A DNA stretch of 64,000 nt from a bacterium (GCA_016708315.1 JADJGC010000004.1:2000-65999), one strand, 5' to 3'; shown: positions 5,572-46,901, numbered from the stretch's first letter. Numbers and translations are program-made. Notes: generated from the sequence alone by a model not told the origin.

Positions 5572-6331
5572 GCGCCATTCGGTTTGGTCATCAGTATCGC
5601 GGGCGATACGTACTCCTTCACGCGGAGAGAACGATGGGCGTGCCTGGCTGTACGTTGTTCCACCGCTTACAACGGCCAATCCTACAGACCTGGCGATGAA
5701 GGTTGAATACCAGGGGTCACCAGAATTCAAGAGTGAGACTCTGGTCAGTTATGAGTCCGGCTATCGTGGAAATCTGACAAACCGATTCTGGATTGATGCA
5801 GCAGCATATTACAACATTTACGATGGCATCATTATGGGCCAAGTGGGTCAGCCCGTACCTCCTGATGCGCAGCACCCTTATATCACAATTCCATTTAGAC
5901 CATATAATGGTGGCAGTGTAAAGTCATACGGCATGGAGATTACCGCCGACTTCCAACTGTCTCCATCGATTCGAACCAAGATGGCCTACTCCTATGGCCA
6001 CGGTGAGAAGCTAAAGGCGGTTTCCGAGATAAGCGCAGGATCCTTCTATCTGCCGCGCCATCAACTTAGCCTGCAACTAAACACCAGCCCAGCCCGTTGG
6101 ATCGAGCTCGGATATTGGATCCGTTTTGTGGACGAGATTGCCGAAGGGCCGGTTCCGAGTTACTGGACGCTAGATTCGCGGCTGGCAATCAGCTTAACCA
6201 AGCAGCTAGAATTCGCACTGATCGGCAAAGATCTGCTTGAAAAACAACATCAGGAGTTTCAATCGGATCTGAACAACGTGTATTCAGAACCCGAACGAAG
6301 AATTGTCGGATCACTTACCTGGAGATACTAG
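5507..6331 (+). CDS. TonB-dependent receptor, fragment 3 of 3 (C-terminal barrel)
   Basis: The reading returns to the frame of fragment 1 near 5555. It contains WSSVSRAIRTPSRGE and ends in the aromatic terminal residue expected of TBDRs (..GSLTWRY). Confidence 0.75.
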   Translation: MSTTTTRATSFSPVLFVWALSERHSVWSSVSRAIRTPSRGENDGRAWLYVVPPLTTANPTDLAMKVEYQGSPEFKSETLVSYESGYRGNLTNRFWIDAAAYYNIYDGIIMGQVGQPVPPDAQHPYITIPFRPYNGGSVKSYGMEITADFQLSPSIRTKMAYSYGHGEKLKAVSEISAGSFYLPRHQLSLQLNTSPARWIELGYWIRFVDEIAEGPVPSYWTLDSRLAISLTKQLEFALIGKDLLEKQHQEFQSDLNNVYSEPERRIVGSLTWRY

Positions 6332-8348: not shown

Positions 8349-10812
8349 GATTCTGGTAGTTGAAGACGAGTCGATTGTTGCTTTAGACATTCGGCAGCGA
8401 CTTGAAATCATGGGTTTTGAAGTAGTCGCGACAGTCGCCACCGGTGCTGCTGCCATCGAGAAAACATTGTCGGAAAAGCCTGATTTGATTCTAATGGATA
8501 TTCAAATCAAAGGAGAGATCGATGGTATCCAGACAGCCGATCAGATAGCTCAATTAGTCGACGTACCGATCATCTTTCTCACGGCTAACTCCAGATCGAG
8601 TTACTATCGACCGGGCAAAGAACTCAGGTCCGCTCGCGTATCTTTGAAACCTTTCGAAGATCGGGAACTTCAAACCGCTATCGAAATCGCTCTCGAACGA
8701 CACCGCTTAGAGCGCAAGCTGAAGGAGCACGAACAGTGGCTATCAGTGACTCTCGGCAGTATTGGTGATGCCGTTTTGGCATTTGACACGAAAGGCAATG
8801 TCACCTATCTAAATTGTATAGCGGAACAGCTTACAGGTTGGACAAACGATGAAGCACTCGGGCGACCAGCAAGAGAGGTCCTGAGACTCACGCTCAGCGA
8901 AGCGGCGGCATTCAAACCGATTGAACCAATCGCAAAGGTGTTGGATTCAGGGACAACCTTCCATCTGAGTGAATTCGCCCTTTTGACTCGGCGTGACGAA
9001 GTGCAAATCGCGATTGAAGACAGCGTTGCTCCAATTCGGCTCGAGTCGGGCGAATTGATCGGTGCTGTCATGGTCTTCCGTGACGTTACTGCTCGTATCC
9101 TCACTGAGAGGAAATTGCGAGATTCCGAGATGCACATCAAACGGATCTTTGAAACTGTGCAGGAAGGGTTGGGAGTGGTCGATGAACACGAGCAGATACT
9201 GATCTGCAACCCCGCCTTTGCTGCGATTCTGGGTGAAGACGATCCCAAAGCGGTCATCGGAAAGAAAATTGTAGACTACATGAGCCCGGAATCACAACTG
9301 GAAATCTTGGCACAGACAAACATCCGGCAGACGGGCGTCAGCAATGAGTACGAGTTGAGCGTTGCGACTCCGGCCGGCGAAGCAAGAATTGTAGATGTGA
9401 ATGTCGCGCCGCTCGTAGATGAATTGGGCAAATACTGCGGCGCTGTTAGCACGATGGTTGATATTACCCATCGCAAGCAATTGGAACTGGAGCTGAGCCA
9501 GCATCGTGATCACCTCGAGAAGTTAGTGCAGGCACGCACCAAAGAACTAACGGTGACACTCAAGACTCTTCAAAGCGAAATCGATGAGCGCAAGCGCCTT
9601 GAAACTGAACGCGAGGCGATGAAAGGTAAGTTACAAAAGGCCGAGAAGATGGAAGCCTTGGGGATGCTCGCCGGCGGCGTCGCTCATGACCTAAACAACA
9701 CCTTGGGACCCCTTGTCGGATATCCCGATTTGATTCTTGAGTTCCTGCCGAATAATCCCGGAGTCCGAAGAATGGTTGAGCGGATAAAGCTTGCCGCGGT
9801 TGACGCGGCCAGCGTGGTTAACGATCTCCTTACCCTCGCCCGACGGGGCCGGTATGAGATGTATCCGATGCGAATGAGTGACGTTCTTCGCGAATATCTT
9901 GATTCGCCTGGCTTCTTACGGCTCCAAGCTGAACATCCGAAAATCAAGACTGTGACCGACCTTGACGACGCCGCTGATCTCATAATGGGCTCAGCTCCAC
10001 ATCTGGCCAAGGTGCTGATGAACCTGGTGATCAACGCATTTGACGCCATCAAGGCAGAAGGAACTGTGACTGTTAAAATCGCCAAGGTTAGCTTGACAAG
10101 ACTGGATTCCGGCTACGACAAAATCAATCCGGGCGACTACGTTATGGTTCGAGTATCCGATACCGGATGTGGAATCTCCGAGGAAGACCTCACCAAGATT
10201 TTTGAGCCTTACTACTCGAAGAAGAAAATGGGTCGTAGCGGTACGGGACTGGGACTTTCGGTGGTCTACGGGATTGTTCAGGACCATGCTGGTTACTACG
10301 ATGTTCTCTCCGAAGTCGGACGAGGGACTGATTTTGTACTGTACTTCCCGGTAACCGAAAAGGCCATTTCCAAGACTCCGAATCAAGAAGTCAAGCAGGG
10401 TTCTGAATCACTTCTTGTGGTTGATGACAACGAGGAGCAGCGAGAACTTGCCAGCGAAATTCTTGGCAGCATCGGTTATCGCGTCAGTTCCGTTGCCAGT
10501 GGACGTGAAGCAGTAAGATACCTACATGACAACTCCGTTGATTTAATCTTGCTCGACATGATTATGGAACCTGACTTCGACGGGCTCGATACTTACAAAG
10601 AAGTGCTTAAGTTGAGACCGCAACAAAACGCAGTCGTCGTGTCCGGATTCTCTTCGAACGAACGTGTTGAGGAACTTCTGCGTCTCGGTGCGTCGGGGTA
10701 CCTTCAAAACCATACTCGGTGGAACAGATCGCATCGGCAGTTTATGCCGCTCTACATCCATGCTCCTCAAATCCTGAACACGACACAAACAGTTCAGTCT
10801 CACCGATGCTGA
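8335..10812 (+). CDS. hybrid sensor histidine kinase/response regulator (REC - PAS - PAS - HisKA - HATPase_c - REC)
   Basis: A TTG at 8335 is preceded by GAGGAG; the ORF itself is open from 8293. Motifs are REC (ILVVEDE, DLILMDI, KPF), PAS segments, HisKA (GGVAHDLNNTL), HATPase_c (NLVINAFDA, DTGCGI, GTGLGLS), and a second REC (LLVVDDNE, LILLDMIMEPDFDG). Internal and terminal frame anomalies are described in the findings. Confidence 0.85.
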   Translation: MSAHKILVVEDESIVALDIRQRLEIMGFEVVATVATGAAAIEKTLSEKPDLILMDIQIKGEIDGIQTADQIAQLVDVPIIFLTANSRSSYYRPGKELRSARVSLKPFEDRELQTAIEIALERHRLERKLKEHEQWLSVTLGSIGDAVLAFDTKGNVTYLNCIAEQLTGWTNDEALGRPAREVLRLTLSEAAAFKPIEPIAKVLDSGTTFHLSEFALLTRRDEVQIAIEDSVAPIRLESGELIGAVMVFRDVTARILTERKLRDSEMHIKRIFETVQEGLGVVDEHEQILICNPAFAAILGEDDPKAVIGKKIVDYMSPESQLEILAQTNIRQTGVSNEYELSVATPAGEARIVDVNVAPLVDELGKYCGAVSTMVDITHRKQLELELSQHRDHLEKLVQARTKELTVTLKTLQSEIDERKRLETEREAMKGKLQKAEKMEALGMLAGGVAHDLNNTLGPLVGYPDLILEFLPNNPGVRRMVERIKLAAVDAASVVNDLLTLARRGRYEMYPMRMSDVLREYLDSPGFLRLQAEHPKIKTVTDLDDAADLIMGSAPHLAKVLMNLVINAFDAIKAEGTVTVKIAKVSLTRLDSGYDKINPGDYVMVRVSDTGCGISEEDLTKIFEPYYSKKKMGRSGTGLGLSVVYGIVQDHAGYYDVLSEVGRGTDFVLYFPVTEKAISKTPNQEVKQGSESLLVVDDNEEQRELASEILGSIGYRVSSVASGREAVRYLHDNSVDLILLDMIMEPDFDGLDTYKEVLKLRPQQNAVVVSGFSSNERVEELLRLGASGYLQNHTRWNRSHRQFMPLYIHAPQILNTTQTVQSHRC

Positions 10813-10987
10813 CTTTGTAGCCAGCCTGAGCGGCGAGAGATTAATGAGTTATTACAGAGTCAAACAGGTGCGGCGAGATGAGAAAAATGCGCCCACTGCC
10901 CTTCCGAACTCACTTTCCAAGTTTGACCGAGTGTTCAGCAGCGTCTAAACATGTAGCATGATTGGACCGCTCGATTCAAGTGCGCTA

Positions 10988-11185
10988 CTACTTCACCGAC
11001 TGCCACGAGTCGGTTTTCTTGTAGTCGAAGAGCAACAACAACGGAATCACCAGCCAAATCAACAGCGCCAATCCTGTCACTGACAGTGTCACTGCGCTCT
11101 TCGTTGAAATCAGGAAGATGAAGCTTCCGCCCCAGACGAATATATTGATGGCGACAATCGTCAGTGTCACTCTGAGATTATCCAT
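10988..11185 (-). CDS. small membrane protein (2 TM), hypothetical
   Basis: This 65-aa ORF has two clear hydrophobic helices. Its start overlaps (ATGGATAA) the end of another small, frame-disrupted membrane ORF at 11186-11418. Confidence 0.4.
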   Translation of the reverse strand: MDNLRVTLTIVAINIFVWGGSFIFLISTKSAVTLSVTGLALLIWLVIPLLLLFDYKKTDSWQSVK

Positions 11186-11492
11186 CGTCCAGCCAGAGCT
11201 TGATTAGGATCTTCATCGACATGGCAAATGCCAAAAACAGTAGCCCGGCAACGCGGAGAATGCTGACGGCGACAAAGTAGGTGCTGTCGGTTACGATCCG
11301 GCCGGAACGTTCGCCCAGGAAATCAGGGCATCATTGACGATCAAGTGGGGAACCATCAACGCAAACACCGCAGGCAAACGTAAACCAGATTGAGAAGTTG
11401 ATCAGCCGCCAAGTCATGGAATGAATCTACCTCCTACGTTATCAAACTGCAACACATCATCACCGAAGTTGCCTGAATAGGAAATCAACTGC

Positions 11493-11876
11493 CTAAACCT
11501 TTGCCGTCAACCATCGGCCGCGGCGATAATAGAAGTAGAACAGTATCGTTGTCAGGATTCCCGAGCCGGTAAGAACCCACCAGACGGCGGTTTCATTGAA
11601 ACCAAGCAGCTGCGTCAACATGACTGCAGGCAGTACCTGGAAAAGCCACGAATGGATAATGCTGAATACCATGTATGGCGCATTGAGTCCGACGCCAAGA
11701 TGAATCTGTTCAAGCATCAAGAACGCTCCAAAGAACGGGAAACTGATTGCCGTAATACGCAGAATATTGACACCGTGGCGCACCGTTTCTTCGCTCTCAA
11801 AGAATACCCGCATGTACGCTCCGGCAAAGACAAAAGTCAGAATTCCCATCGCAGCCATAACTCCGAACGACAACAA
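11493..11876 (-). CDS. MATE-family efflux transporter, fragment 3 of 3 (C-terminal)
   Basis: This hydrophobic multi-TM segment continues the MATE reading from 11837-12268. The junction lies at a 5-nt homopolymer (plus-strand T run 11912-11916); restoring one base gives HNIGAQKIDRAKATADHAVLLSFGVMAAMG. Confidence 0.7.
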   Translation of the reverse strand: MLSFGVMAAMGILTFVFAGAYMRVFFESEETVRHGVNILRITAISFPFFGAFLMLEQIHLGVGLNAPYMVFSIIHSWLFQVLPAVMLTQLLGFNETAVWWVLTGSGILTTILFYFYYRRGRWLTAKV

Positions 11877-35402: not shown

Positions 35403-35438
35403 CACGATCTCATTATTCAGAATCGCTTAGTGAGTTAA

Positions 35439-35469
35439 CGGCAGGGTGAAGACCCTGCCGTTTTCATTT
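35439..35469 (+). terminator. intrinsic terminator of secA
   Basis: The stem is CGGCAGGGT / ACCCTGCCG with loop GAAG, followed by TTTTCATTT. Confidence 0.8.
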
Positions 35470-35506: not shown

Positions 35507-36811
35507 CTATTTGAACTGATAAGTCAGATTACCACTCAGCAAGTACAGAAATACATCATCTTCTTTATCGTCGTGGTATTCAAAACTCGAACCACCGACT
35601 ACGGAAAAACGTATCCGGTCCGACAGATTGAGATCCGCAAGCAAATCCAGATTCACGAACCAGTGGTCAGTATAGAATTCAGAATCATTGTTCAGGTAGT
35701 TGCGCCATCCAAGTTGACTGTCCAGACTGAATGAATATTTCCGCGAAGAGAGATTCTCATATCCGGCGAGCAGTTTTGTTGCCTGATAATCTTGTTCGTT
35801 GTAAATAGAATCAGCTGCCTGAAAGCGCTCGCGCGCAATACCAATGCTGAATGTTGACAGAAGATTGTAGCGATAATCCAACTCCATTTGCGTCATCACG
35901 CGCCAGTGTGAGAATGTCGCGAGCCCCTGAACATCAAAATCATAGTATTGCACTTCCAACTGGGGTGAGAGCTCTAATTGCTCTGCAACTGAGAATGAAG
36001 CATCGAAGTATGGTCCGAAGAAGTAGTAATTGTCATCTGAGCTGTCCCACGAGTAGCTCTTTCTTTCCAGATAGATTCGTGATTGAATCGACCGCGAGGC
36101 ACCAATGTAGTCCAATCCAATTTCAGCAATGCCCTTGCTAAAGTCGAGCAACGACGAATCATAGCTGTCGCGTCTGTCGTATCGCAGCGCAAACTCCAAT
36201 GCCGAGAAATCCGCAATGTTGCGGGTTATCCGCACCCGTGATTCATGCTGGCGGTATCCATAAACCGACTCTGAGCGGTTGTCGTATCCTGTGTACTCAA
36301 ACTCTTGAGAGATTTCCGCCTCCCAGTCTTCGTTCTTGAAAAATGCAAATCCGAGTCGCGAACTGTTTTGGAAGCGGCTGTCATAGATGTTGAAATCATC
36401 TGAACCGGCATATGACTTGAACTCGGCATCCGAGGTGAGCTTCCAAGCACCCCATTCAATTCTGAAGTTGATCTGATTGCGAAGCTTCTCGTCAGAAAGG
36501 AAAGTGTTGTTCGTAAAGACGACCTTCGCGGGACCTTTTCGCTGAAGTTCGAGACGGAGATTTACACCCCTTTCGTCCAACCGATCAGAGTAGCTTCGCA
36601 ACTCCGCCAACGAATCGTCGCTGATTCCAAGTGTGTCGATATCGCGAAGATAATAATCCTGCGAAATGAAATCGTAGTTTAGCCCCGCCTTTCCTTTCCA
36701 TTCCCAACTTCCGGCATAAACCGGCACTGAAATGAAAACAAGAACTAAGAAAAGAAAAAGTCTCTTCGGCGCAGCGCTGAAGAGACTCCGCTTAGCAAAA
36801 ATATCCTGCAT
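35507..36811 (-). CDS. predicted outer-membrane beta-barrel protein, uncharacterised; translationally abutting the upstream helical-repeat gene
   Basis: This 434-aa ORF has a signal peptide (LFLFLVLVFISVPVYAG), Tyr/Asp/Ser-rich alternating strands throughout, and the C-terminus ..GNLTYQFK. Its ATG follows directly after the TAG of the preceding gene. Confidence 0.7.
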   Translation of the reverse strand: MQDIFAKRSLFSAAPKRLFLFLVLVFISVPVYAGSWEWKGKAGLNYDFISQDYYLRDIDTLGISDDSLAELRSYSDRLDERGVNLRLELQRKGPAKVVFTNNTFLSDEKLRNQINFRIEWGAWKLTSDAEFKSYAGSDDFNIYDSRFQNSSRLGFAFFKNEDWEAEISQEFEYTGYDNRSESVYGYRQHESRVRITRNIADFSALEFALRYDRRDSYDSSLLDFSKGIAEIGLDYIGASRSIQSRIYLERKSYSWDSSDDNYYFFGPYFDASFSVAEQLELSPQLEVQYYDFDVQGLATFSHWRVMTQMELDYRYNLLSTFSIGIARERFQAADSIYNEQDYQATKLLAGYENLSSRKYSFSLDSQLGWRNYLNNDSEFYTDHWFVNLDLLADLNLSDRIRFSVVGGSSFEYHDDKEDDVFLYLLSGNLTYQFK

Positions 36812-37876
36812 CTACCAGGCTCCGAGAATCCTGGCAGCCTGTTGGTTGAGTTCGATAACGACGCGCACTATTACCAGAGCACGCTGCTCCTCGCCGCGTT
36901 CGTGCAAAGTGCGTGCCTGATCCAGTTTCTCGGTGGCCTCATCAAGCAGTTTGTCAGCATCGTGACTGCCGGTTTCCTGCGCGCGCTCACGCAATCGCTC
37001 GAGTTGCGATTGAGCCGTAGCGATGGCACGCTCGGAATCGGTTATCGCACCTGATTCTCCACACATCTGCACGGCGCGTCGCACTCGGGTGACTCCGCTT
37101 GCCAGCAAACGAATCGACTCTTCGAAACTGCCAGACTCGTATGCTTGATCCGCCTTGTCAATCTGCTCCTCACCGGAATCGAAAAGCCTCTTTGCCGATT
37201 CATCCTTGCAGGAATTCATAGTTTCTGAATTGTCCGAAACGAAGTCCTGTGCCCGATCGAGGTTGAGTCGAAGATTTTCCCTCCGCCGTTCGCCTCCGCC
37301 CACATACTCGGTAAGGTTGCGACAGATATCCTGCGCACGGCGAGTAAACTGCAATGATTGACGAAGATTATTTTCGCTGAAGAAATCACGCGCCCGGTCC
37401 TGAAGCCGCTGAGCCTCCTGCAATCGCAGATCAAGAATCGGAGTTTCACCGCTTTGCGCGACCGCACGAATCTGTTCAATTAGTTCGTCTGTACGGTCAA
37501 GCTGCTGTTCAACCAACGAGCGATCTTCATCAGAACGCACCATTGAGCCGATGCAGCGCCTTGCCGCTTCCCGCGCTCGCAGTGTCGACTGCAACGCCAA
37601 TGCCAGACGTCCTCTCTCGAGAAGCTCTAATGCCCGATCTTGGGATTGCTCAGCCTGACGCAACAATGCTGTCGTCTTCTGGTCTCGCGATTGGTCGACT
37701 GACTTACGCGCTTGCTCAATGATATTGTCAGTCTGCTCAATCTCCTGCTTCACGCGATCCCGGTCAAGAACCTGTCCGTAGGCACTACCGCTCAAGACCG
37801 CTATCGAAAAGAGCAAAACGGTGACGGCTATCCACATGGTCGATTGTATTTTCATTTCTCGTAAGCTTCTCTTCAT
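36812..37876 (-). CDS. secreted all-helical protein made of four ~72-aa repeats, uncharacterised
   Basis: GAGGA lies upstream of the ATG, and the signal peptide is MWIAVTVLLFSIAVLSGSAYG. Four repeats align by eye (see findings). Confidence 0.7.
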   Translation of the reverse strand: MKRSLREMKIQSTMWIAVTVLLFSIAVLSGSAYGQVLDRDRVKQEIEQTDNIIEQARKSVDQSRDQKTTALLRQAEQSQDRALELLERGRLALALQSTLRAREAARRCIGSMVRSDEDRSLVEQQLDRTDELIEQIRAVAQSGETPILDLRLQEAQRLQDRARDFFSENNLRQSLQFTRRAQDICRNLTEYVGGGERRRENLRLNLDRAQDFVSDNSETMNSCKDESAKRLFDSGEEQIDKADQAYESGSFEESIRLLASGVTRVRRAVQMCGESGAITDSERAIATAQSQLERLRERAQETGSHDADKLLDEATEKLDQARTLHERGEEQRALVIVRVVIELNQQAARILGAW

Positions 37877-37897
37877 AATATCCTCGAATTGGATATT

Positions 37898-37913
37898 CTC
37901 AAAATCCGTGCCG
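37898..37913 (-). promoter_or_regulatory. candidate sigma-54 (-24/-12-like) promoter of the helical-repeat/beta-barrel operon
   Basis: The minus strand reads CGGCACGgattTTGAG, against the consensus TGGCACG-N4-TTGCW. The -12 GC is GA here. It lies about 22 nt upstream of ATG 37876 and directly downstream of a GAFTGA-type activator gene. Confidence 0.4.
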
Positions 37914-38027
37914 GAATTGCGGATTTCACGAGTTTTCCTAAGGCGTTCATTTTGAGGATGTTAGAAACACCGGAAACTGCACCTTCCAACCCTGACAAAA
38001 ACGCACGGCCGGAGTGTACCATTAGGT

Positions 38028-39368
38028 TCATTTATATGTACCATCCGGTCCAGAATTGATGCCGTAGATCTTCATTCGCGAGTACAGACGCCTGCGTGTA
38101 ATCTTGAGCTTCTCCGCCGCGACTGTCTTCCTGCCGCCGCTTTGATTAAGCGCATCCACAATCATCCTGCGTTCAGTGTCATTTATCCCGCCCGGCTCGT
38201 GTTCCAACACTTGTTCGTCAGCCTGAATTCCAAGCAGATCCGGACTCAAAGGTTCACCATCGGCGAGTATCACGGCACGCTCGATGATGTTTTTCAATTC
38301 CCGAACATTGCCGGGGTATGCATAGCGCTTGAGTGTTTCCACGCAGTCGTTAGACAATCCGCCATGAGTATAGCTATGACGCTTAAGAAAGTACTCTGCC
38401 AACGGCACAATGTCATCCTGCCTCTCGCGTAACGGCGGAATTGCCATAGGAAAGACACTCAACCTGAAGAACAAATCTTCGCGAAACGACCCGTTCTCCA
38501 TCAGCGCCTTAAGGTCTCGATTCGTTGCAGCAATTATGCGAGCATCGGAACGTAAGGTCTCTGTCCCGCCGACACGCACGAATTGCCCCAGTTCCAGCAC
38601 ACGCAGCAGTTTGGCCTGCATCGATTGTGAGATTTCGCCGATTTCATCGAGGAACAGAGTCCCTCCCTGTGCCAGCTCGAATCGCCCAGGCTTGCGTTTC
38701 ACCGCGCCGGTGAATGCGCCTTTTTCATGGCCAAACAGTTCTGACTCCAACAATGTCTCGCTCAGTGCGGCGCAGTTAAGTGCAATAAACGGTCCCGATT
38801 GGCGCGGCGACCGCTTATGAATCATATTGGCGACCAGTTCCTTGCCGGTACCTGATTCACCAAGCAGAAGCACCGTGGATTCCCGCTTGGCGACCTTGTC
38901 TATCATCTCAAAAAGTTGTTTGACGCCTGCCGACTTGCCGACAAACTCTCCAACTGCAAACTGCTCATAGTCGGCGACAAACTGCTCATTGAGTACCTTG
39001 ATTCGCCGATTGTCCAGAAAGCGGTCAACCAATATTGTCAGTTCGTCCAATGAGAACGGTTTGATCAAGTAATCATACGCTCCATTCTTCATCGCCATAA
39101 CTGCTGACTCTGCTGTTGCGTAAGCCGTCATCAAGATGACACCGGTATCCGGCGCGATTTGACTCGCCTGCTTGAGAATCTCCAACCCATCCGGCGGGGA
39201 CATTCGGAGATCGGAAATCACGAGATCGTACGATCCGCCGTTAAGCGCCTTAATCGCAAGGTCGCCTGAATTGTGTACTGTGACTGTGTGACCGGCATCC
39301 TCCAGTGTGGAAGCAACCAGCATCGCCATTTTGGCTTCATCATCAACTACGAGAATCTTCGCCATCAA
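38028..39368 (-). CDS. sigma-54-dependent response regulator (NtrC/AtoC class: REC + AAA+ + Fis-type HTH)
   Basis: Motifs are REC (ILVVDDE, DLVISDLRM, KPF), Walker A GESGTGKE, the sigma-54 contact loop EKGAFTGA, and C-terminal HTH AAEKLKITRRRLYSRM. Confidence 0.92.
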   Translation of the reverse strand: MMAKILVVDDEAKMAMLVASTLEDAGHTVTVHNSGDLAIKALNGGSYDLVISDLRMSPPDGLEILKQASQIAPDTGVILMTAYATAESAVMAMKNGAYDYLIKPFSLDELTILVDRFLDNRRIKVLNEQFVADYEQFAVGEFVGKSAGVKQLFEMIDKVAKRESTVLLLGESGTGKELVANMIHKRSPRQSGPFIALNCAALSETLLESELFGHEKGAFTGAVKRKPGRFELAQGGTLFLDEIGEISQSMQAKLLRVLELGQFVRVGGTETLRSDARIIAATNRDLKALMENGSFREDLFFRLSVFPMAIPPLRERQDDIVPLAEYFLKRHSYTHGGLSNDCVETLKRYAYPGNVRELKNIIERAVILADGEPLSPDLLGIQADEQVLEHEPGGINDTERRMIVDALNQSGGRKTVAAEKLKITRRRLYSRMKIYGINSGPDGTYK

Positions 39369-40680
39369 TCCGTTCCGGGAAAGTTACTGTTACTGATGTC
39401 CCAACTCCCACTTGAGAGTTGATACGAATTTCGCCTTTCATATTATCGACCAAACGCTTCACAACAAAGAGCCCGAGCCCCGTTCCCTGCGATTTGGTTG
39501 TGAAGAATGGATCAAAAATGTGCTTCATCACTTTCTTCTCGATGCCAGCGCCTGTATCGCTGATTGTGATCGACAGTATTCCCGAACGTGCCGTGCCCGC
39601 CGTCACATTGACAGTTGCACCTTCAGGCGAAACATCGAGTGCGTTCTTCATCAAGTTCACAAGTATCTGGCGAACCTTCTGTGAGTCGACCTTGCAACTT
39701 GTTATTGATGACTCGCAATCCGCGTGCAGCTTTACGCCCTTCTGCTCAAACTCTTTGCTCATTCCTTGGACAACTGATTCCACTACCTCACTGAGGTTCT
39801 GTACCTTACCTGGGGCATCAATCGGCGATGCAAATTGAAGATAGTGCGTTGTAATCGTGTTGAGCCGGTCTACCTCTTCGGGAATGAAATCAAATAGCTG
39901 CGCATCGCTCGATTCACCAGAAGCGTACTTCTTTTTCAATCGTTCAGCGGTCGCCTTGATAATCGCCAGCGGATTGCGCACCTCATGCGCGATTACCGCC
40001 GCCATTTGACCCATTTGCGAAAGAGCCGCTTGCGACACCAACATCTTCTCCGCTTGTATGAGTCTGCGATTTAGTATGACGACTACTATAGAAACAAATA
40101 ACAGAAACCCAATCGCCGCCGCGTTGACAACAATCATATACTGCTTGAAGTCTTCGAACTCCGTGAAGAATTCAAAATTGCTTTCGATCAATAGTACGCC
40201 ATAGACCGGATCCTCGCCGACCGGCTGATACGCCGACTTGAAGTAGCGGTTGCCGGCACGATTCAACTCGGAGACTCCGGCATTGCCCAAAGCGGCGCGG
40301 CTCAACCCCTCGATGTGCAACGGCAAGAACAACTGCACATTTGAGATTGAATCATCCAGTGAGAGCATATCACGATGCTCTGCATCGAGAAGATATATGG
40401 CAGACAACGCATCCGAATCCCGAATTCGAACAAGATAATCCTGGAGCCTGACCACTGTCGCCAAAGACAAAGGATCTTCCGGCGTTTCGTATTGCAGTAC
40501 GCCTTCGATTTCCGGCGCGATTGCGCGTCCGACCGACAGAAGACGGTCGCCGAGCGAACGATCAAGTGTATCCAGCGAGCGCGTGTACAATAAGTATAGC
40601 GCAATGTTGAATCCCGCCACCAGCAACAGAAGGAGAGCAATAATAAGTATGGAAACGAGTTTGCGATTGTCACCGATCAT
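39343..40680 (-). CDS. membrane sensor histidine kinase (TM - extracytoplasmic domain - TM - HisKA - HATPase_c), partner of the NtrC-type regulator
   Basis: It has two TM helices, H-box IAHEVRNPL, and ATPase boxes LVNLMKNALD, DTGAGI and GTGLGL. It overlaps the regulator gene by 26 nt. Confidence 0.9.
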   Translation of the reverse strand: MIGDNRKLVSILIIALLLLLVAGFNIALYLLYTRSLDTLDRSLGDRLLSVGRAIAPEIEGVLQYETPEDPLSLATVVRLQDYLVRIRDSDALSAIYLLDAEHRDMLSLDDSISNVQLFLPLHIEGLSRAALGNAGVSELNRAGNRYFKSAYQPVGEDPVYGVLLIESNFEFFTEFEDFKQYMIVVNAAAIGFLLFVSIVVVILNRRLIQAEKMLVSQAALSQMGQMAAVIAHEVRNPLAIIKATAERLKKKYASGESSDAQLFDFIPEEVDRLNTITTHYLQFASPIDAPGKVQNLSEVVESVVQGMSKEFEQKGVKLHADCESSITSCKVDSQKVRQILVNLMKNALDVSPEGATVNVTAGTARSGILSITISDTGAGIEKKVMKHIFDPFFTTKSQGTGLGLFVVKRLVDNMKGEIRINSQVGVGTSVTVTFPERIDGEDSRS

Positions 40681-40882
40681 TGCTTATAACTGCCGCCTGA
40701 TTGTTACACATTTGTGCCCTCGGATTTCGTACCTCGTGGTTCGAGATCGTACTTCGATGTACCATGTGGTACGCATCGACAAATAGTCGTCATCAATGTC
40801 GATTGCTTGAGACATTTACACAAGGGGTCTAAGCCGCGTTACGGCAAATGGTTGTCTCTTGTCTCGACCTCCCTGCGAAAGT

Positions 40883-40898
40883 TGGCACGACATTTGAC
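40883..40898 (+). promoter_or_regulatory. candidate sigma-54 (-24/-12-like) promoter of the divergent lipoprotein gene
   Basis: The element reads TGGCACGacatTTGAC, a perfect -24 half with a -12 half of TTGA instead of TTGC. It lies 53 nt upstream of ATG 40951. An inverted repeat, TGTACCAtgTGGTAC, lies at 40758-40772. Confidence 0.45.
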
Positions 40899-40950
40899 TA
40901 TACCCTCAGTAAGAGATCATTGCAGATCAGACCTAAATGAAGGAGAAATT

Positions 40951-42015
40951 ATGAAGTCCAAAATCAGAATCCTGCTATTCGGAGTACTCGCGTTGTTGGT
41001 AGTTGGCCTAATCGGCTGCAGCGACAATAACGTCACTCCCGAACAAGGCGACGATGAGTCAATCAATCTGACCGATAACTTCGGCGGTTACAAAGCAACT
41101 GACGAGCAACCTGCATTCGGCGATCCCGATATTGCCAGCCTCGAAGGCAGCGCTGAGGCAAACGATCCGATCATGTTGAATCCCGATGTCGATTCAATCA
41201 CCAAGCTTCTTGACATCGGCGTCTATTCGGTCGAATTCCTTTGGGGACACCTTGAACTCGATTCCACTGAAGTTGCCGTCACCGATTGGTCCGGCTCACT
41301 GACTCTAGAACGCGGCGCAATTGTTGCCGTCCGCCTGATCCGCTTTGAAGCCGGCGACTTTATCGTTCGTCCGCGTCTATCGCGTACTGTTCTCGAGTTC
41401 GAAAGCAAGACCCGTCCGAGTTTTGATGGAATGCTCGTTTACATCTATGATCCAACCCCTTCCGTTTTTGATACCGAGAACACTCTGACCTTCACGTCCG
41501 GACCTATCACCCAGACTTTCACTATGTCCGAACTGGCGTCAATTAGCACCGTAACTGACGTCGGCAGTAACCAGTTCTCAGTTAATGGATTTAAGATCGA
41601 GCGCCTTGCTTGCGGCGAGGGCTATCTCGAAGGAAGATGGATTCGTCCGGCATCAGTACGCGGACAGGGCACTTTCGTCGGCCGGTGGATCTCCGAAGAT
41701 GGCCTGATGTTGGGTCATGTGCGCGGGCACTTCGGTAACCGTGAAGATGACGTTCAGGTGCTCTTCGGCAAGTGGATCTCAGTAGCTGGCCTCTTCCGTG
41801 GCTTCCTCAAGGGAGAATGGGGATACGGTACTGATGATGATCCGAGCGCGACTGACAAAGGCTGGTTGTCGGGAGACATCTTCAATCGCGAAGCTGTCGC
41901 TGTTGGTGAATTTGATGCCAACTGGGTCGCGAGAGAACGTCCCGGAAATGGCAATAATGACCGCGCCGCAAAACACGGTTACTTCCGCGGTCAATGGTCG
42001 CAGAACTGTGAATAA
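40951..42015 (+). CDS. lipoprotein with C-terminal Gly/Trp-rich short repeats, uncharacterised
   Basis: AGGAGA RBS precedes the start, and the lipobox is LIGC. Repeats are of the form G-x-(F/W)-x-G-x-W (EGRWIRP, VGRWISEDG, FGKWISVAG, LKGEWGYG, FRGQWSQ). Confidence 0.7.
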   Translation: MKSKIRILLFGVLALLVVGLIGCSDNNVTPEQGDDESINLTDNFGGYKATDEQPAFGDPDIASLEGSAEANDPIMLNPDVDSITKLLDIGVYSVEFLWGHLELDSTEVAVTDWSGSLTLERGAIVAVRLIRFEAGDFIVRPRLSRTVLEFESKTRPSFDGMLVYIYDPTPSVFDTENTLTFTSGPITQTFTMSELASISTVTDVGSNQFSVNGFKIERLACGEGYLEGRWIRPASVRGQGTFVGRWISEDGLMLGHVRGHFGNREDDVQVLFGKWISVAGLFRGFLKGEWGYGTDDDPSATDKGWLSGDIFNREAVAVGEFDANWVARERPGNGNNDRAAKHGYFRGQWSQNCE

Positions 42016-42054
42016 CACCCATCCGTAAAGGCGTTTGCAATCGCCTTCCTGAAG

Positions 42055-42091
42055 ATCAGGCGCTCGACAATTGTCGGGCGCCTGATTTGTT
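42055..42091 (+). terminator. intrinsic terminator after lipoprotein gene
   Basis: A long hairpin, ATCAGGCGC-t-CGACA-at-TGTCG-g-GCGCCTGAT, is followed by TTGTT. Confidence 0.7.
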
Positions 42092-42473: not shown

Positions 42474-43706
42474 ATGACCAGTCGATTCGGTTTGTTGATG
42501 ATGCTTGCCGCATTCATCTTGTGTCTTGGTGCTACTGCGTACAGCGGCGTTACGCCATCACGTCTCAACTATCAAGGGTTGTTGACGGATGCAAATGGCC
42601 AGCCAATGAACGCCACCGGCGTGCAGATGACATTTCGCATTTGGAACCATCCTATTCAAAGCGACATCGCTAATCTGAAATGGGAAGAGACACTCCTGGT
42701 CGATGTCACCAACGGACTCTTCAACGTCATTCTTGGCGACAATATCCAAATTGAACCCGAAGTATTCGATTCATCTGCCAGCTATCTTGGCATCCAAATC
42801 GGAACTGACCCGGAAGGCGAACCGCGCACCAGATTGGTGTCGGTCGGTTACTCAACCAGAGTTGAAACCCTCGATGGTGCCCGCGGCGGCGTGATCTCCG
42901 GAACGATCGGATTGCAGCCATCAACCGGCACAAAAGATGGCGACATCGAACAGCTCCGCTACGAGATCTTCGACGAACAAGACAGCATCAAGTTCTGGGC
43001 GAGCGAGACCGAGGTCTTCGCTCCCTGTGTACAATTCTCCGGCGACGACAGCCGTCAATGCACTGCGGCAATGAGCTCCGGCGCAGCGCAAGTTGAAGAT
43101 AGCGATGTAACAACCACTATTGGTAACACACCGGTGGTGCTTGCTCAACAGACTATCGATTGCCCGAGCGATGGCTATGTCCTCGTATTGGGCTCCTGTG
43201 AAGCTTCATTCGATCTGACCGGATCAGATATCACGGCAGTGGCGCCCGGTACTATTCCGACTTATGCAGCGGAATTTGGCGTCGTTGCCAATGAGACCGA
43301 ACAACCCGACGATCAGCGCAAGAGCTGGCTGATTCGTGGTATTGAACCATTCTTGCAGGCGAAAAATGTAATAAGTCTCCAAAAAGTCTTCGCGGTCGAA
43401 GCCGGTGCTTCGACATTTTTCCTCGTAGCCGAACGTACTGCCGGTGATGCTGAATTCACAGCTTCCGATAAAACACTGACCCTGGTCTTCATACCGACGG
43501 CATATGGCGACGTTAGCTCCACATCTACGACCGCGGCGCCCACGACTGCTGTCACGAGCACAGTCGGAGTTAGCAAGGCAGCATCAAGAACAGTGCTGTC
43601 AACAACTGAAAACGGCTCGAATAGTGAGATTGCGAGACTCAAGACCGAGATCAACGAACTGAGATCACTTCTGCAGCAAGTCGTTGCCGAAAAGAACAAA
43701 CAATAA
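42474..43706 (+). CDS. secreted tail-fibre-like / adhesin-like protein with C-terminal coiled coil (paralogue of 1064-2668)
   Basis: It has AAGGAGAG RBS, a signal peptide, the N-terminal motif LNYQGLLTDANGQP..MTFRIW, a shared C-terminal domain (DGYVLVLGSCEA), a Ser/Thr linker, and the coiled coil SEIARLKTEINELRSLLQQV. Confidence 0.75.
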   Translation: MTSRFGLLMMLAAFILCLGATAYSGVTPSRLNYQGLLTDANGQPMNATGVQMTFRIWNHPIQSDIANLKWEETLLVDVTNGLFNVILGDNIQIEPEVFDSSASYLGIQIGTDPEGEPRTRLVSVGYSTRVETLDGARGGVISGTIGLQPSTGTKDGDIEQLRYEIFDEQDSIKFWASETEVFAPCVQFSGDDSRQCTAAMSSGAAQVEDSDVTTTIGNTPVVLAQQTIDCPSDGYVLVLGSCEASFDLTGSDITAVAPGTIPTYAAEFGVVANETEQPDDQRKSWLIRGIEPFLQAKNVISLQKVFAVEAGASTFFLVAERTAGDAEFTASDKTLTLVFIPTAYGDVSSTSTTAAPTTAVTSTVGVSKAASRTVLSTTENGSNSEIARLKTEINELRSLLQQVVAEKNKQ

Positions 43707-43729: not shown

Positions 43730-44149
43730 ATGACAAAGGTCCGAGTGATTGTTAGAGTGGCACTGTTGATAGTCGTGATGCTCTCTTCCACTTTGTTGGG
43801 GGACGACTACACGATCAAGTGGCATGTGGTATCGACCGGCGGTACCCAAAGCACATACTCTGACGGGAAGACGCTTCATGGTACGGTGGTACAGACCGCC
43901 ATTGGCACCGTTTCGTCATCCAACTACCGCGTCTACCAGGGGTTCTGGCAAGAGTTTACTTCGTGCCGTGCCGGCGATGCCGACGGCAGCGGCAATGCCA
44001 ATATTTCTGACGCCGTTTATATCATCAGCTTCATCTTCCTTGGTGGCCCCGAACCGGTCACCGCTTGCGGCGGAGATGCTGATGGCAACGGCTTCGTTAA
44101 TGTCTCGGATGCGATCTGGTTGATTCGATACATCTTCCAGTCGCCATGA
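43730..44149 (+). CDS. small secreted protein with double dockerin-like repeat
   Basis: It has a signal/anchor helix, the motif YTIKWHVVSTGG..SSNYRVYQGFW, and then GDADGSGNANISDAVYIISFIF and GDADGNGFVNVSDAIWLIRYIF. Confidence 0.7.
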   Translation: MTKVRVIVRVALLIVVMLSSTLLGDDYTIKWHVVSTGGTQSTYSDGKTLHGTVVQTAIGTVSSSNYRVYQGFWQEFTSCRAGDADGSGNANISDAVYIISFIFLGGPEPVTACGGDADGNGFVNVSDAIWLIRYIFQSP

Positions 44150-44303: not shown

Positions 44304-46901
44304 ATGAGCGATTCTGAAGAACAAGATAACCTCGAAAAAACCAAAGTAAGCCGAAACGACGGCAAGATCGCAACCGTCGGCAGATATCGCGTTATTGAAA
44401 AAATCGGCGCTGGTGGTATGGGAGAGGTTTATCTTGCATTCGACCCGAAACTACAGCGCAATGTCGCAATCAAACTACTACCGCCCACACTGGCCGAAGA
44501 TCCGGAGACCAAAGCGCGCTTCATTCGCGAGGCTCAAACCGCTGCCGCGCTAAACCACAACAACATTGTCACCATCTACGAAGTTGACGAAAGCGAGGGA
44601 AGACAATTCATCGCTATGGAGCTTGTTGAAGGTGTGCCGCTCAAAGACCTAATCAAAGCTCAGCGACTACCACTGGAAAATTGCATCGACTTGATCTTGC
44701 AAGTCTGCGACGGCCTTGTCGCCGCTCACGAACGCAGTATCGTTCACCGCGATATCAAACCGGCAAATATACTTGTCAGTGGCAAAGGCAAAGTCAAAAT
44801 CCTCGACTTCGGTCTCGCCAAGCTTCAAAGCGTTTCCGGTTTGACCAGCACTGGCGTTCGACTTGGTACAATTGCCTACATGTCGCCAGAGCAGGCCCAA
44901 GGCGTTGAAGTCGACCAACGTTCCGACATCTTCTCGCTCGGAGTTGTCATCTATGAGATGCTTTCAGGGCAGACTCCATTTAAGAAGGATTCCGAAATCG
45001 CCACGTTACTGGCAATCCTTCAGCAGATTCACGTTCCGCTTCTGCAACTCACCCCTGAGGTTGGAGAGAAGATTAGCGCAATTGTTGATCGCGCACTTCA
45101 AAAAGATCCCGCTTTGCGCTACCAGAATGTGGAAGACCTCGCCCGGGAACTTCGGCTTGTCATGAAACGTGCCGAGCCGCAGCCATCGCAATTTCCAAAC
45201 GTTGCATCGGCGCCTCTACCGATGCCGTCAGCAGGCTTGGAATCCAGTACTGTAACTCGCACTTCCGTTGGACTCAAGAAAGCCATCGCAATTCTTCCCT
45301 TCGAGAATCTTGGTCCGACCGAGCACGATTACTTTGCTGATGGTATCACGGATGAAATCACCACCAGCCTCGCCAAAATCAAGCTGCTCAAGGTCATCTC
45401 CAACAACAGCGCGCGCCAGTTTCGCGACAAGAATAAGAGTCTTGTCGAAATTGCGGGCGAGCTGGGAGTAGAGTTCTTGCTGACCGCAACGATCCGCTGG
45501 GACAACAGCCAGACACCTTCTCGGTTTCGACTAAGCTGCAAGCTTGTCGACACTAAAGATGAATCATATCTCTGGGCGGAATCATACGATCGTGTTCTCG
45601 ACCAGATTTTTGTGCTCCAATCGGAGTTGGCATCGGAGATCACCAAGGCGCTCGGTGTTGCATTGGCAACTCCTGAATTGGATAGTCTCTCGCGCATTCC
45701 TACAACGAATCTCGAAGCCTACGACTTCTATCTCCGCGGAAATGAATTCTATCCTCGCAGCACTCAGCCAGCCGACATCAGCAAGGCCATCGAGATGTAC
45801 GAAAAGGCTGTCGAGCTCGATCCTGATTTCGCATTAGCTCACGTGAAATTGAGCCAGGCAAACCTCAGTATGTATTGGTTCTTCCATGACCGGACACAGG
45901 CACGTATTGCCCGCGCCAAATTGTCGGTAGATGCTGCAGTTCGCGTGGCGCCGCAGTTAGCTGAGACCAATCTGGCAATGGGGTACTACTATTACTATGG
46001 CTGCAAAGAATACATGTTGGCGCTTGAGCAATTTGTTGTCGCCGGTAAGAGCCGTCCTAATGACAGCAGTCTATTGGCCGCAACTGGATTTATCCAGCGG
46101 CGGCTCGGGTTCTGGAACGAAGCCCTTCGCAATATACGCAAAGCAGCCGAACTCGACCCCAAATCGTCGTTGCTTGCTTCAGAACTCGGCAATACGCTAA
46201 TGCTTTTGCGGCAGTATGACGCGGCGTTGATACAATTTGACCGCGCCATTTGGCTCGTGCCTGATTGGATAGATATTTACGCTCGAAAAGCCCAAACGAT
46301 TCTTTTGCGCGACGGCAACGTCGCCGCAGCAGCACAGATATTCCGTGAGGCCGAATCACGTGTGCCGCCCGGCGAGATGGTCATGGAATTTATGCTGCTC
46401 GATGTCTTTGTCGAATACTGCGATCGCGATGTCCAGAAGGCGATGGATAGACTCGCCATCGACGAAGTTGAAATGGAGCTGTACTTCATAAACAAAGGCC
46501 GGTTGGCGCAGCGCCTCGGACGTGAATCAGAGGCAAGATCATATTTCGAATCCGCACGCGTAATGCTCGAATCCAAACTCAAAACCAGCCCCGATGACGC
46601 CCGCTATCTCGCTAATTTGGGCATAGCCTACGCCGGACTTGGTCAGGCAGACAAGTCGATTAGTCACTGTGAAAAAGCGCTGGAGTTGTTTCCACATGAC
46701 CGCGACCACGTCTTCAGTATTGTTTACATGGAAACCTTCGCAATCGCTTTGACGATGCTTGGCCGCACCGACCAGGCAATCGAACAACTGAAGTTCCTCC
46801 TCGGCGTGCCGTCCTACATTTCGCGACCGCTCCTAATGGTGGCCGAACATTTCGCGCCGTTGCGGGGCCTCCCCGGATTCCAGAAGCTATTGATCGGTTA
46901 A
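44304..46901 (+). CDS. Ser/Thr protein kinase with TolB-N-like middle domain and C-terminal TPR repeats
   Basis: Hanks kinase motifs are GAGGMGEVY, VAIK, HRDIKPANIL, DFGLA and YMSPE. They are followed by KAIAILPFENLG..DYFADGITDEI and multiple TPR-like helices. Confidence 0.9.
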   Translation: MSDSEEQDNLEKTKVSRNDGKIATVGRYRVIEKIGAGGMGEVYLAFDPKLQRNVAIKLLPPTLAEDPETKARFIREAQTAAALNHNNIVTIYEVDESEGRQFIAMELVEGVPLKDLIKAQRLPLENCIDLILQVCDGLVAAHERSIVHRDIKPANILVSGKGKVKILDFGLAKLQSVSGLTSTGVRLGTIAYMSPEQAQGVEVDQRSDIFSLGVVIYEMLSGQTPFKKDSEIATLLAILQQIHVPLLQLTPEVGEKISAIVDRALQKDPALRYQNVEDLARELRLVMKRAEPQPSQFPNVASAPLPMPSAGLESSTVTRTSVGLKKAIAILPFENLGPTEHDYFADGITDEITTSLAKIKLLKVISNNSARQFRDKNKSLVEIAGELGVEFLLTATIRWDNSQTPSRFRLSCKLVDTKDESYLWAESYDRVLDQIFVLQSELASEITKALGVALATPELDSLSRIPTTNLEAYDFYLRGNEFYPRSTQPADISKAIEMYEKAVELDPDFALAHVKLSQANLSMYWFFHDRTQARIARAKLSVDAAVRVAPQLAETNLAMGYYYYYGCKEYMLALEQFVVAGKSRPNDSSLLAATGFIQRRLGFWNEALRNIRKAAELDPKSSLLASELGNTLMLLRQYDAALIQFDRAIWLVPDWIDIYARKAQTILLRDGNVAAAAQIFREAESRVPPGEMVMEFMLLDVFVEYCDRDVQKAMDRLAIDEVEMELYFINKGRLAQRLGRESEARSYFESARVMLESKLKTSPDDARYLANLGIAYAGLGQADKSISHCEKALELFPHDRDHVFSIVYMETFAIALTMLGRTDQAIEQLKFLLGVPSYISRPLLMVAEHFAPLRGLPGFQKLLIG

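Follow-up and report, generated by a model that had tools for sequence, protein, structure and literature searches.

In Escherichia coli, the sigma-54 two-component system ZraSR controls a periplasmic helical protein, and in many sigma-54 two-component systems whose sensor is periplasmic the induced targets are uptake systems. At the outer membrane, the cargos of Slam translocons (type XI secretion) end in an 8-stranded barrel. Here, we analyse a five-gene module that resembles these systems in part. It occupies positions 35,507-42,015 of a 64,000-nucleotide (nt) stretch of bacterial DNA (GCA_016708315.1 JADJGC010000004.1:2000-65999; hereafter the window), and encodes a membrane sensor histidine kinase, an NtrC-type activator, a periplasmic helical-repeat protein, an outer-membrane β-barrel and a lipoprotein. 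A reading of this DNA made without database searches (the sequence-only reading) had proposed an uncharacterised sigma-54-controlled envelope module. The five-gene observation is confirmed, comparison with relatives strengthens it, and the proposal is supported. In our interpretation, the genes probably form their own sigma-54 two-component regulon, whose products build an inducible outer-membrane assembly.

As in ZraPSR, a membrane kinase with a periplasmic sensor and an NtrC-type activator are combined with a sigma-54 promoter for a secreted helical periplasmic protein, and one target gene is divergent from the kinase operon. However, the helical protein is not of the ZraP/CpxP type, and a barrel and a lipoprotein family are added under the same control. 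Slam systems likewise comprise a helical-repeat periplasmic element, an outer-membrane barrel and an associated lipoprotein with a beta-rich C-terminal domain; to our knowledge, sigma-54 control is not a known feature of these systems. LptDE and MtrCAB share the overall topology that we propose, a large barrel filled by a partner together with a lipoprotein component, and MtrB is among the structural matches of the barrel. In contrast to both, the module shows no sequence homology to them, its barrel is smaller (about 20 versus 26 strands) and the association of its components is deduced indirectly. Moreover, the multihaem character of MtrCAB has no counterpart, as the three effector sequences contain no CXXCH haem motif. 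The exopolysaccharide exporters AlgK/AlgE, BcsC, PgaA and PelBC also combine a helical-repeat periplasmic module with an outer-membrane barrel, and AlgE and BcsC are among the generic fold matches, but the module loci have no polysaccharide synthase or glycosyltransferase genes nearby and no Pfam match to those families. Taken together, the regulatory half of the module is ordinary in kind and unusually well resolved, and the effector half consists of three unannotated protein families.

The predicted regulatory circuit and its targets

The genes, the predicted promoters and the candidate activator sites are located as follows.

35507-36811, minus strand: outer-membrane β-barrel gene, 434 amino acids (aa)
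36812-37876, minus strand: periplasmic helical-repeat protein gene, 354 aa
38028-39365, minus strand: NtrC-type activator gene, likely ATG at 39365 (open reading frame 38028-39368)
39343-40680, minus strand: membrane sensor histidine kinase gene
40951-42015, plus strand: lipoprotein gene, 354 aa
37900-37912, minus strand: predicted sigma-54-type -24/-12 promoter of the helical-barrel operon, GGCACGgattTTGA, about 24 nt 5′ of the helical ATG
40884-40896, plus strand: predicted sigma-54-type -24/-12 promoter of the lipoprotein gene, GGCACGacatTTGA = TTGGCACGacatTTGAc, 67 nt 5′ of the ATG
38015-38030 and 38037-38052, no strand: two tandem candidate activator palindromes, TGTACC-N4-GGT(T/C)CA, 22 nt apart, across the activator stop codon
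40758-40773, no strand: candidate activator palindrome TGTACCatgtGGTACG in the divergent intergenic region

All five reading frames lie where the sequence-only reading had placed them, and both of its -24/-12-like elements, before the helical and before the lipoprotein gene, are present. The barrel ATG directly follows the TAG of the helical gene with zero bases between them, as it had stated. The kinase and activator genes do overlap, however by 23 nt and not by the 26 nt given originally: the same 23-nt overlap is found in relatives, which makes the ATG at 39365 the most likely activator start.

We consider it very likely that this part of the interpretation is correct, namely a dedicated NtrC-type circuit with a predicted binding site, two transcription units and three exported envelope proteins. 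The activator comprises a receiver domain (Response_reg, 1.3e-24), a sigma-54 AAA+ domain (Sigma54_activat, 1.1e-69) followed by an AAA lid, and a Fis-type helix-turn-helix (HTH_8, 3.6e-10). Together with the sigma-54 contact loop GAFTGA, which had been noticed before and is the only GAFTGA in the window, this is the domain composition of the NtrC family. The loop reads GAFTGA or GSFTGA in 33/33 activator orthologues. The kinase is predicted to contain a first transmembrane helix (residues ~8-32), a periplasmic sensor of about 150 aa (~33-181) and a second transmembrane helix (~182-203), followed by HisKA and HATPase_c; a domain scan detected neither HAMP nor PAS, and the sensor domain has no relative among solved structures. 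The best named kinase matches, AtoS and ZraS, score far under their curated cut-offs, the kinase reaching 184.5 bits against the ZraS equivalog (cut-off 479) and the activator 369.8 bits against the ZraR equivalog (cut-off 760). An identity with PrsK/PrsR of the PEP-CTERM system was ruled out likewise (PEP_resp_reg, 393.1 bits versus 502.6; PEP_his_kin, 94.8 versus 300).

The predicted promoter is strongly conserved. Between the activator and helical genes, GGCA(C/T)-N5-TTG is present in 38/38 loci at a nearly fixed position, with GG, CA and TTG invariant, and the lipoprotein promoter is kept in 6/6 close loci as well as before lipoprotein genes that are unlinked to the other four. Within the window, GGCACG-N4-TTG occurs 3 times as compared to 0.46 expected. 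A further near-canonical element, aGGCACGcactTTGCA (36905-36917, minus strand), lies within the last part of the helical coding sequence, some 95 nt upstream of the barrel ATG. We rejected it as a separate barrel promoter, since it is absent from all relatives and is thus probably a chance match in coding sequence.

The candidate activator sites are positioned upstream of both promoters. The tandem palindromes lie 118 and 140 nt upstream of the helical-gene promoter, and the palindrome at 40758-40773, which has equivalents in relatives, precedes the lipoprotein promoter by 126 nt and the start codon of the kinase gene by about 80 nt; the window contains 3 palindromes versus 0.22 expected. When a match was defined as at least 10/12 positions, a (T/C)GTACC-N4-GGTACA palindrome was found at -89 to -157 of the helical promoter element in 36/36 distinct regions (0.018 expected per region), often with a second copy 21-22 nt from the first. 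By this comparative evidence, the arrangement corresponds to that of NtrC-family targets, -24/-12 promoters with candidate upstream sites about 100 bp away.

In the 64-kb window and in every barrel locus alike, the combination of palindrome and promoter precedes no gene other than the helical gene and the lipoprotein gene, the latter wherever it is present. Unlinked lipoprotein genes keep the pair, and in a wider scan relying on automatic start-finding 23/38 lipoprotein loci were positive for this signature. Among the positives is a metagenome-assembled genome in which the cassette is found on contig L064 and the lipoprotein gene on a separate contig, L102. These unlinked genes, together with the gene order in Latescibacterota described below, indicate a regulon of three effector families with variable linkage. 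On this evidence from sequence comparison we regard the lipoprotein as a predicted regulon member that is often unlinked, and the four remaining genes as the deep core.

At L091 7133-7624 and L092 1841-2332, two of the unlinked lipoprotein genes are each divergent from a rubrerythrin gene and convergent with a gene for a TPR protein. As the palindrome is located in the intergenic region shared with the lipoprotein gene, rubrerythrin might also respond to the activator. In addition, the region L006 12817-19158, in the vicinity of a lone lipoprotein paralogue, contains a second sigma-54 two-component pair that is divergent from a CusCBA/Czc-type metal efflux operon, with FUR and TerB nearby.

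Distribution and gene order

The arrangement is syntenic in relatives. The order kinase, activator, helical protein and barrel is colinear in about 45 species-level genomes, mostly Zixibacteria/GN15, and in every locus with enough flanking sequence the four genes are colinear and tightly spaced, down to a barrel identity of about 20%. On the contigs of relatives the lipoprotein gene accompanies this cassette while the flanks vary, and one locus contains all five genes at 27% barrel identity; in distant genomes the lipoprotein gene is usually not adjacent. In word-indexed searches with the three effectors, every named source belonged to Zixibacteria. A wider survey, in which species-representative genomes were searched with hand-written degenerate DNA motifs and the matches filtered by our own hidden Markov models (HMMs), added about 35 genomes, titled Zixibacteria or GN15, with one Calditrichota, one FCB and several automatically titled Ignavibacteria among them. 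By this comparison, the module is a signature of Zixibacteria as a whole phylum and has relatives in the candidate phyla next to it.

The cassette is also present on a complete Zixibacteria chromosome, CP070766.1 of bin25 (locus L035). On a complete Latescibacterota chromosome, CP070631.1 of bin977, the kinase and activator genes are followed by a partial palindrome, the element CTGGAAC-N5-TTGC and a helical gene that is directly abutted by a lipoprotein gene. Elsewhere, the neighbours of the cassette are secA, holB, clpB, ftsEX or a gene for a cargo protein of the type IX secretion system (T9SS). The latter is a large protein that ends in a T9SS sorting domain and is encoded on the barrel strand, downstream of the barrel gene, in 14 distant loci (e.g. 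L043 3864-6449, L047 3779-6364, L063 2694-5276 and L076 4543-7125). He_PIG Ig-like domains were detected in the five of these proteins that were scanned, and at L007 27-3041 the tailed protein is a Peptidase_S8. We rejected the Ig-domain protein as a regulon member: it lies about 570 nt from the barrel gene in L043, the one gap measured, and carries no palindrome/promoter signature, so that its relation to the module is one of synteny only.

Many module contigs (L010, L011, L013-L015 and more) are deposited under titles such as 'uncultured Ignavibacteria/Ignavibacteriales'. Since the module proteins encoded there share 55-79% identity with proteins of named Zixibacteria, these titles appear unreliable. 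In L008, a run of N (an assembly gap, ~6100-6300) breaks the kinase gene, and the barrel gene at 10049-11530, uncalled in the public annotation, was found by HMM.

Zixibacteria and their neighbours are uncultivated and known mostly from metabolic gene inventories. Searches of the literature on Zixibacteria combined with sigma-54, with rpoN, or with outer membrane and two-component returned nothing relevant to the module. The latter is one of the few complete regulatory circuits of these phyla that have been read from sequence, comprising sensor, activator, predicted site, promoter type and the full local regulon, and this regulon consists of three envelope protein families without annotation anywhere. 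Since its sensor, activator, site and promoter are so well defined, the circuit is testable outside its native host.

The three effector families

The sequence-only reading could not place the effectors in described families, and this assessment stands: Pfam, NCBIfam, PADLOC, sequence and profile searches of the PDB and Foldseek gave no confident assignment for any of them. All three are predicted to leave the cytoplasm, two by signal peptidase I signals and one by a lipobox. The genes for the helical protein and the barrel abut or overlap across the loci (in L004 they abut), which suggests that the two are probably translationally coupled and produced in fixed proportion.

The helical protein carries a signal peptide cleaved after AYG. 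Its repeat structure had been described as four units of 72 aa. The number of units is borne out, whereas the period is about 80 aa, as judged from self-match offsets of 80, 160 and 239. In line with this, the AlphaFold model predicts twelve helices that group by threes into four bundles, each of about 80 aa. For the window protein, Pfam and NCBIfam yielded sub-threshold noise only. Among the 16 family members scanned against Pfam, weak matches to TPR_1/2, YfdX (two members) and DUF4398 are scattered, similarity to MIT domains is likewise weak, and neither these 16 relatives nor the window protein match CpxP, ZraP or Spy-type families. The PDB searches returned exclusively designed helical bundles and the MIT three-helix bundle of VPS4. 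The family comprises 27 clusters in the word-indexed search.

The barrel has a signal peptide cleaved after VYA and ends in the C-terminal beta-signal Y-x-F-K. Both folds were modelled by AlphaFold as one fused chain of the window's helical and barrel proteins with unpaired homologue rows, giving a mean pLDDT (predicted local distance difference test) of 72.8; in the barrel, most 10-residue blocks exceed 70 and many reach 80-93. The model predicts about 20 long strands with short connections throughout, except that strands 1 and 2 are joined by an insert of about 30 aa, which is modelled with low confidence, yet shows the highest conservation in the family. The mature chain of the model begins directly at strand 1, with no N-terminal plug ahead of it. 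Foldseek recovered generic large outer-membrane barrels only (TonB-dependent receptors, MtrB, DcaP, OmpG, AlgE, OccK, CymA and BcsC), with TM-scores of ~0.3-0.5, root-mean-square deviations (rmsd) mostly >10 Å and 7-17% identity. Pfam gave no match at E<=1 for the window protein and no meaningful match at E<=0.05 in 34 members, and nothing was obtained by NCBIfam, PADLOC or the PDB searches. We ruled out a TonB-dependent receptor, as neither Plug nor TonB_dep_Rec was found by Pfam, no domain precedes strand 1, and the TM-score of about 0.3 refers to the barrel part only. In the word-indexed search the barrel family forms 9 clusters; an exhaustive profile search yielded 137 representatives, nearly all of 410-450 aa.

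In the lipoprotein, the lipobox LIG|C is followed by a short linker and the conserved motif FGGY..TDE.PAFGD. Its model (mean pLDDT 87) is all-beta, with a predicted sandwich-like domain (~90-216) and a C-terminal 8-strand domain (~223-351) built of G-x-F-x-G-x-W hairpin repeats of about 29 aa. A fold search revealed no significant neighbour, the best being small eight-strand soluble barrels (E=3.8e-3), and no TbpB or fHbp match. None of 51 family members had a meaningful Pfam match, and NCBIfam, PADLOC and the PDB searches returned nothing. The family forms 60 clusters in the word-indexed search. Longest-frame and automatic start calls for the lipoprotein gene (GTG at 40714) and for some helical genes are too early and take in the sigma-54 promoter, as seen at 40714-42015 of the window, L002 8854-9996 and L004 8903-10000; the true starts are downstream ATGs with a ribosome-binding site ahead of them and a signal peptide after them.

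Proposed assembly, competing explanations and neighbouring genes

In the mechanism that we propose, an extracytoplasmic signal would cause the kinase to phosphorylate the activator, which would then bind the palindromes, oligomerise and remodel the sigma-54 RNA polymerase held at the -24/-12 elements, as the regulator family suggests. The helical-barrel operon and the lipoprotein gene would be induced together, and their products exported to the envelope. Since an empty, plug-less and short-looped barrel of about 20 strands, if modelled correctly, would be a dangerously wide pore, its lumen may be filled or gated by a co-induced partner, which could be a lipoprotein domain or, entering from the periplasm, the three-helix-bundle protein.

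Whether the three effectors assemble physically at the outer membrane is a question on which our judgement is evenly balanced. Four points argue for it: the helical gene abuts the barrel gene in a conserved manner, in Latescibacterota it abuts the lipoprotein gene instead, the effectors are strictly co-regulated, and the modelled barrel has the geometry just described. Our best guess for the function is signal-induced transport or translocation across the outer membrane. A bolder version, which we consider doubtful, is a tripartite machine spanning the outer membrane, specific to Zixibacteria and neighbouring FCB candidate phyla, in which a periplasmic rod of three-helix bundles would be inserted in the plug-less ~20-strand barrel together with a lipoprotein partner. 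It could provide a new lipoprotein surface route or a gated import/export conduit under its own sigma-54 two-component system. A wide barrel sheath filled by a partner would, if true, add a new architecture to the few plug-and-barrel outer-membrane machines.

Several observations weigh against the proposed regulon and assembly. We infer the physical association of the effectors solely from the indirect indications just listed. No relative of the barrel was found within 10 kb of the cassette at the Latescibacterota locus, indicating that linkage of the barrel is not universal. Only 8 barrel homologues were aligned for the barrel model, and the fused model, with a predicted TM-score (pTM) of 0.44, carries no information on how the helical protein is placed relative to the barrel. 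In the sequence examined, no inner-membrane transporter, enzyme or catabolic gene bears the palindrome/promoter signature, and no substrate is indicated. At the fourth base of the -12 element, 23 of the 38 loci have A, 10 have T, 4 have C and 1 has G, so that TTGA/TTGT prevails (33/38) over the canonical TTGC (4), and both window elements read TTGA. A sigma-54 preference particular to this lineage, or a -12 element that is weak by design, may explain this form, and its consistency adds a minor observation on how sigma-54 promoters vary in a poorly sampled phylum. Finally, an RpoN-box motif was not found in the 64-kb window or in any fetched relative locus, the sequences to which this search was limited; the -24/-12 element in all 38 loci and the contact loop in all 33 orthologues nevertheless make a host without sigma-54 very unlikely.

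The sequence-only reading had already drawn an analogy to envelope-stress or Slam-like systems, noting that no sequence motif supports it; both are among the competing explanations weighed here. Among these, an envelope-stress response of the ZraPSR or CpxP/Spy type survives best, though we rate it as rather unlikely. The helical protein would then be a periplasmic chaperone with feedback on the kinase, and the barrel and lipoprotein co-induced repair or maintenance factors instead of components of a single machine. This would fit the appearance of ZraS and ZraR among the best named matches of kinase and activator, the control of a periplasmic helical protein by ZraSR in E. coli, the weak matches of two helical-family members to YfdX, itself a periplasmic helical family, and the fact that all regulon targets are envelope proteins. 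However, the scores remain far under the ZraS and ZraR cut-offs and no match to CpxP, ZraP or Spy-type proteins was obtained. Moreover, with four three-helix units the helical protein is more than twice the size of those chaperones, and its tight abutment with the barrel argues for a stoichiometric pair.

It is unlikely that the barrel is a substrate-specific inducible porin for a nutrient sensed by the kinase, with the helical protein and the lipoprotein as accessory or binding components, following the logic of the DctBD or MifSR regulons. Uptake systems are common targets of sigma-54 two-component systems with periplasmic sensors, and the substrate channels DcaP, OccK, AlgE and CymA are among the fold matches of the barrel, but these matches are generic, as their TM-scores and rmsd indicate. 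In addition, no transporter or catabolic gene shares the signature, and a barrel with about 20 strands and short loops would be too open for a specific channel unless plugged.

A split Slam-like translocon, in which the barrel and the helical protein would carry the co-regulated lipoprotein to the cell surface, appears quite improbable. The regulon does comprise just these three kinds of product, a barrel, a periplasmic protein of helical repeats and a single lipoprotein, the latter is predicted to end in an 8-strand beta domain, reminiscent of the 8-stranded barrel of Slam cargos, and the residues following the lipid-modified cysteine are often acidic (CSD...) in its family. Yet no member shows similarity to DUF560 or to TPR_Slam, no TPR domain is fused to the barrel, which has about 20 strands and not 14, and the helical units, themselves three-helix bundles, belong to a separate protein. 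The lipoprotein also lacks a structural match of the TbpB or fHbp type, and in Latescibacterota it is linked to the helical gene with no barrel nearby.

The idea that GGCA-N5-TTG is the promoter of another sigma factor or a repressor operator, with the activator acting elsewhere, is in line with the scarcity of C at the -12 position (4/38) and the lack of an RpoN-box motif in the sequences searched, but is very improbable given that GG and TTG are invariant at the exact sigma-54 spacing, that a palindrome of a kind fitting a dimeric Fis-type helix-turn-helix always lies ~90-160 nt upstream of the element, which is always beside the gene for a GAFTGA activator, and that some loci carry canonical TGGCAC-N5-TTGC, TCGC or GTGC.

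The five-gene module of the window is bracketed by two terminators, which had been noted before and fold strongly.

42053-42088, plus strand: intrinsic terminator 3′ of the lipoprotein gene, 16-bp GC-rich stem followed by UUUGUU (dG -32 kcal/mol, z -6.4)
35437-35462, no strand: hairpin terminator between the convergent secA and barrel genes, 11-bp stem

The U-tract of the latter is clear toward secA and weak toward the barrel gene. We rejected a genomic island, the base composition being even across the region, and anti-phage defence, as PADLOC gave zero matches.

Among the neighbouring genes, the one at 44304-46901, 2.3 kb past the module, encodes a Ser/Thr protein kinase of 865 aa whose long C-terminal region is rich in TPRs; no evidence ties it to the module. 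Beyond the lipoprotein terminator, a 410-aa secreted protein (42474-43706) weakly matches the N-terminus of a Bdellovibrio mosaic adhesive fibre protein and is followed by a 139-aa dockerin-domain protein (43730-44149). The same secreted/dockerin pair occurs at L004 120-1792, where clpB is located between the pair and the lipoprotein gene, indicating a clpB-sized indel between relatives.

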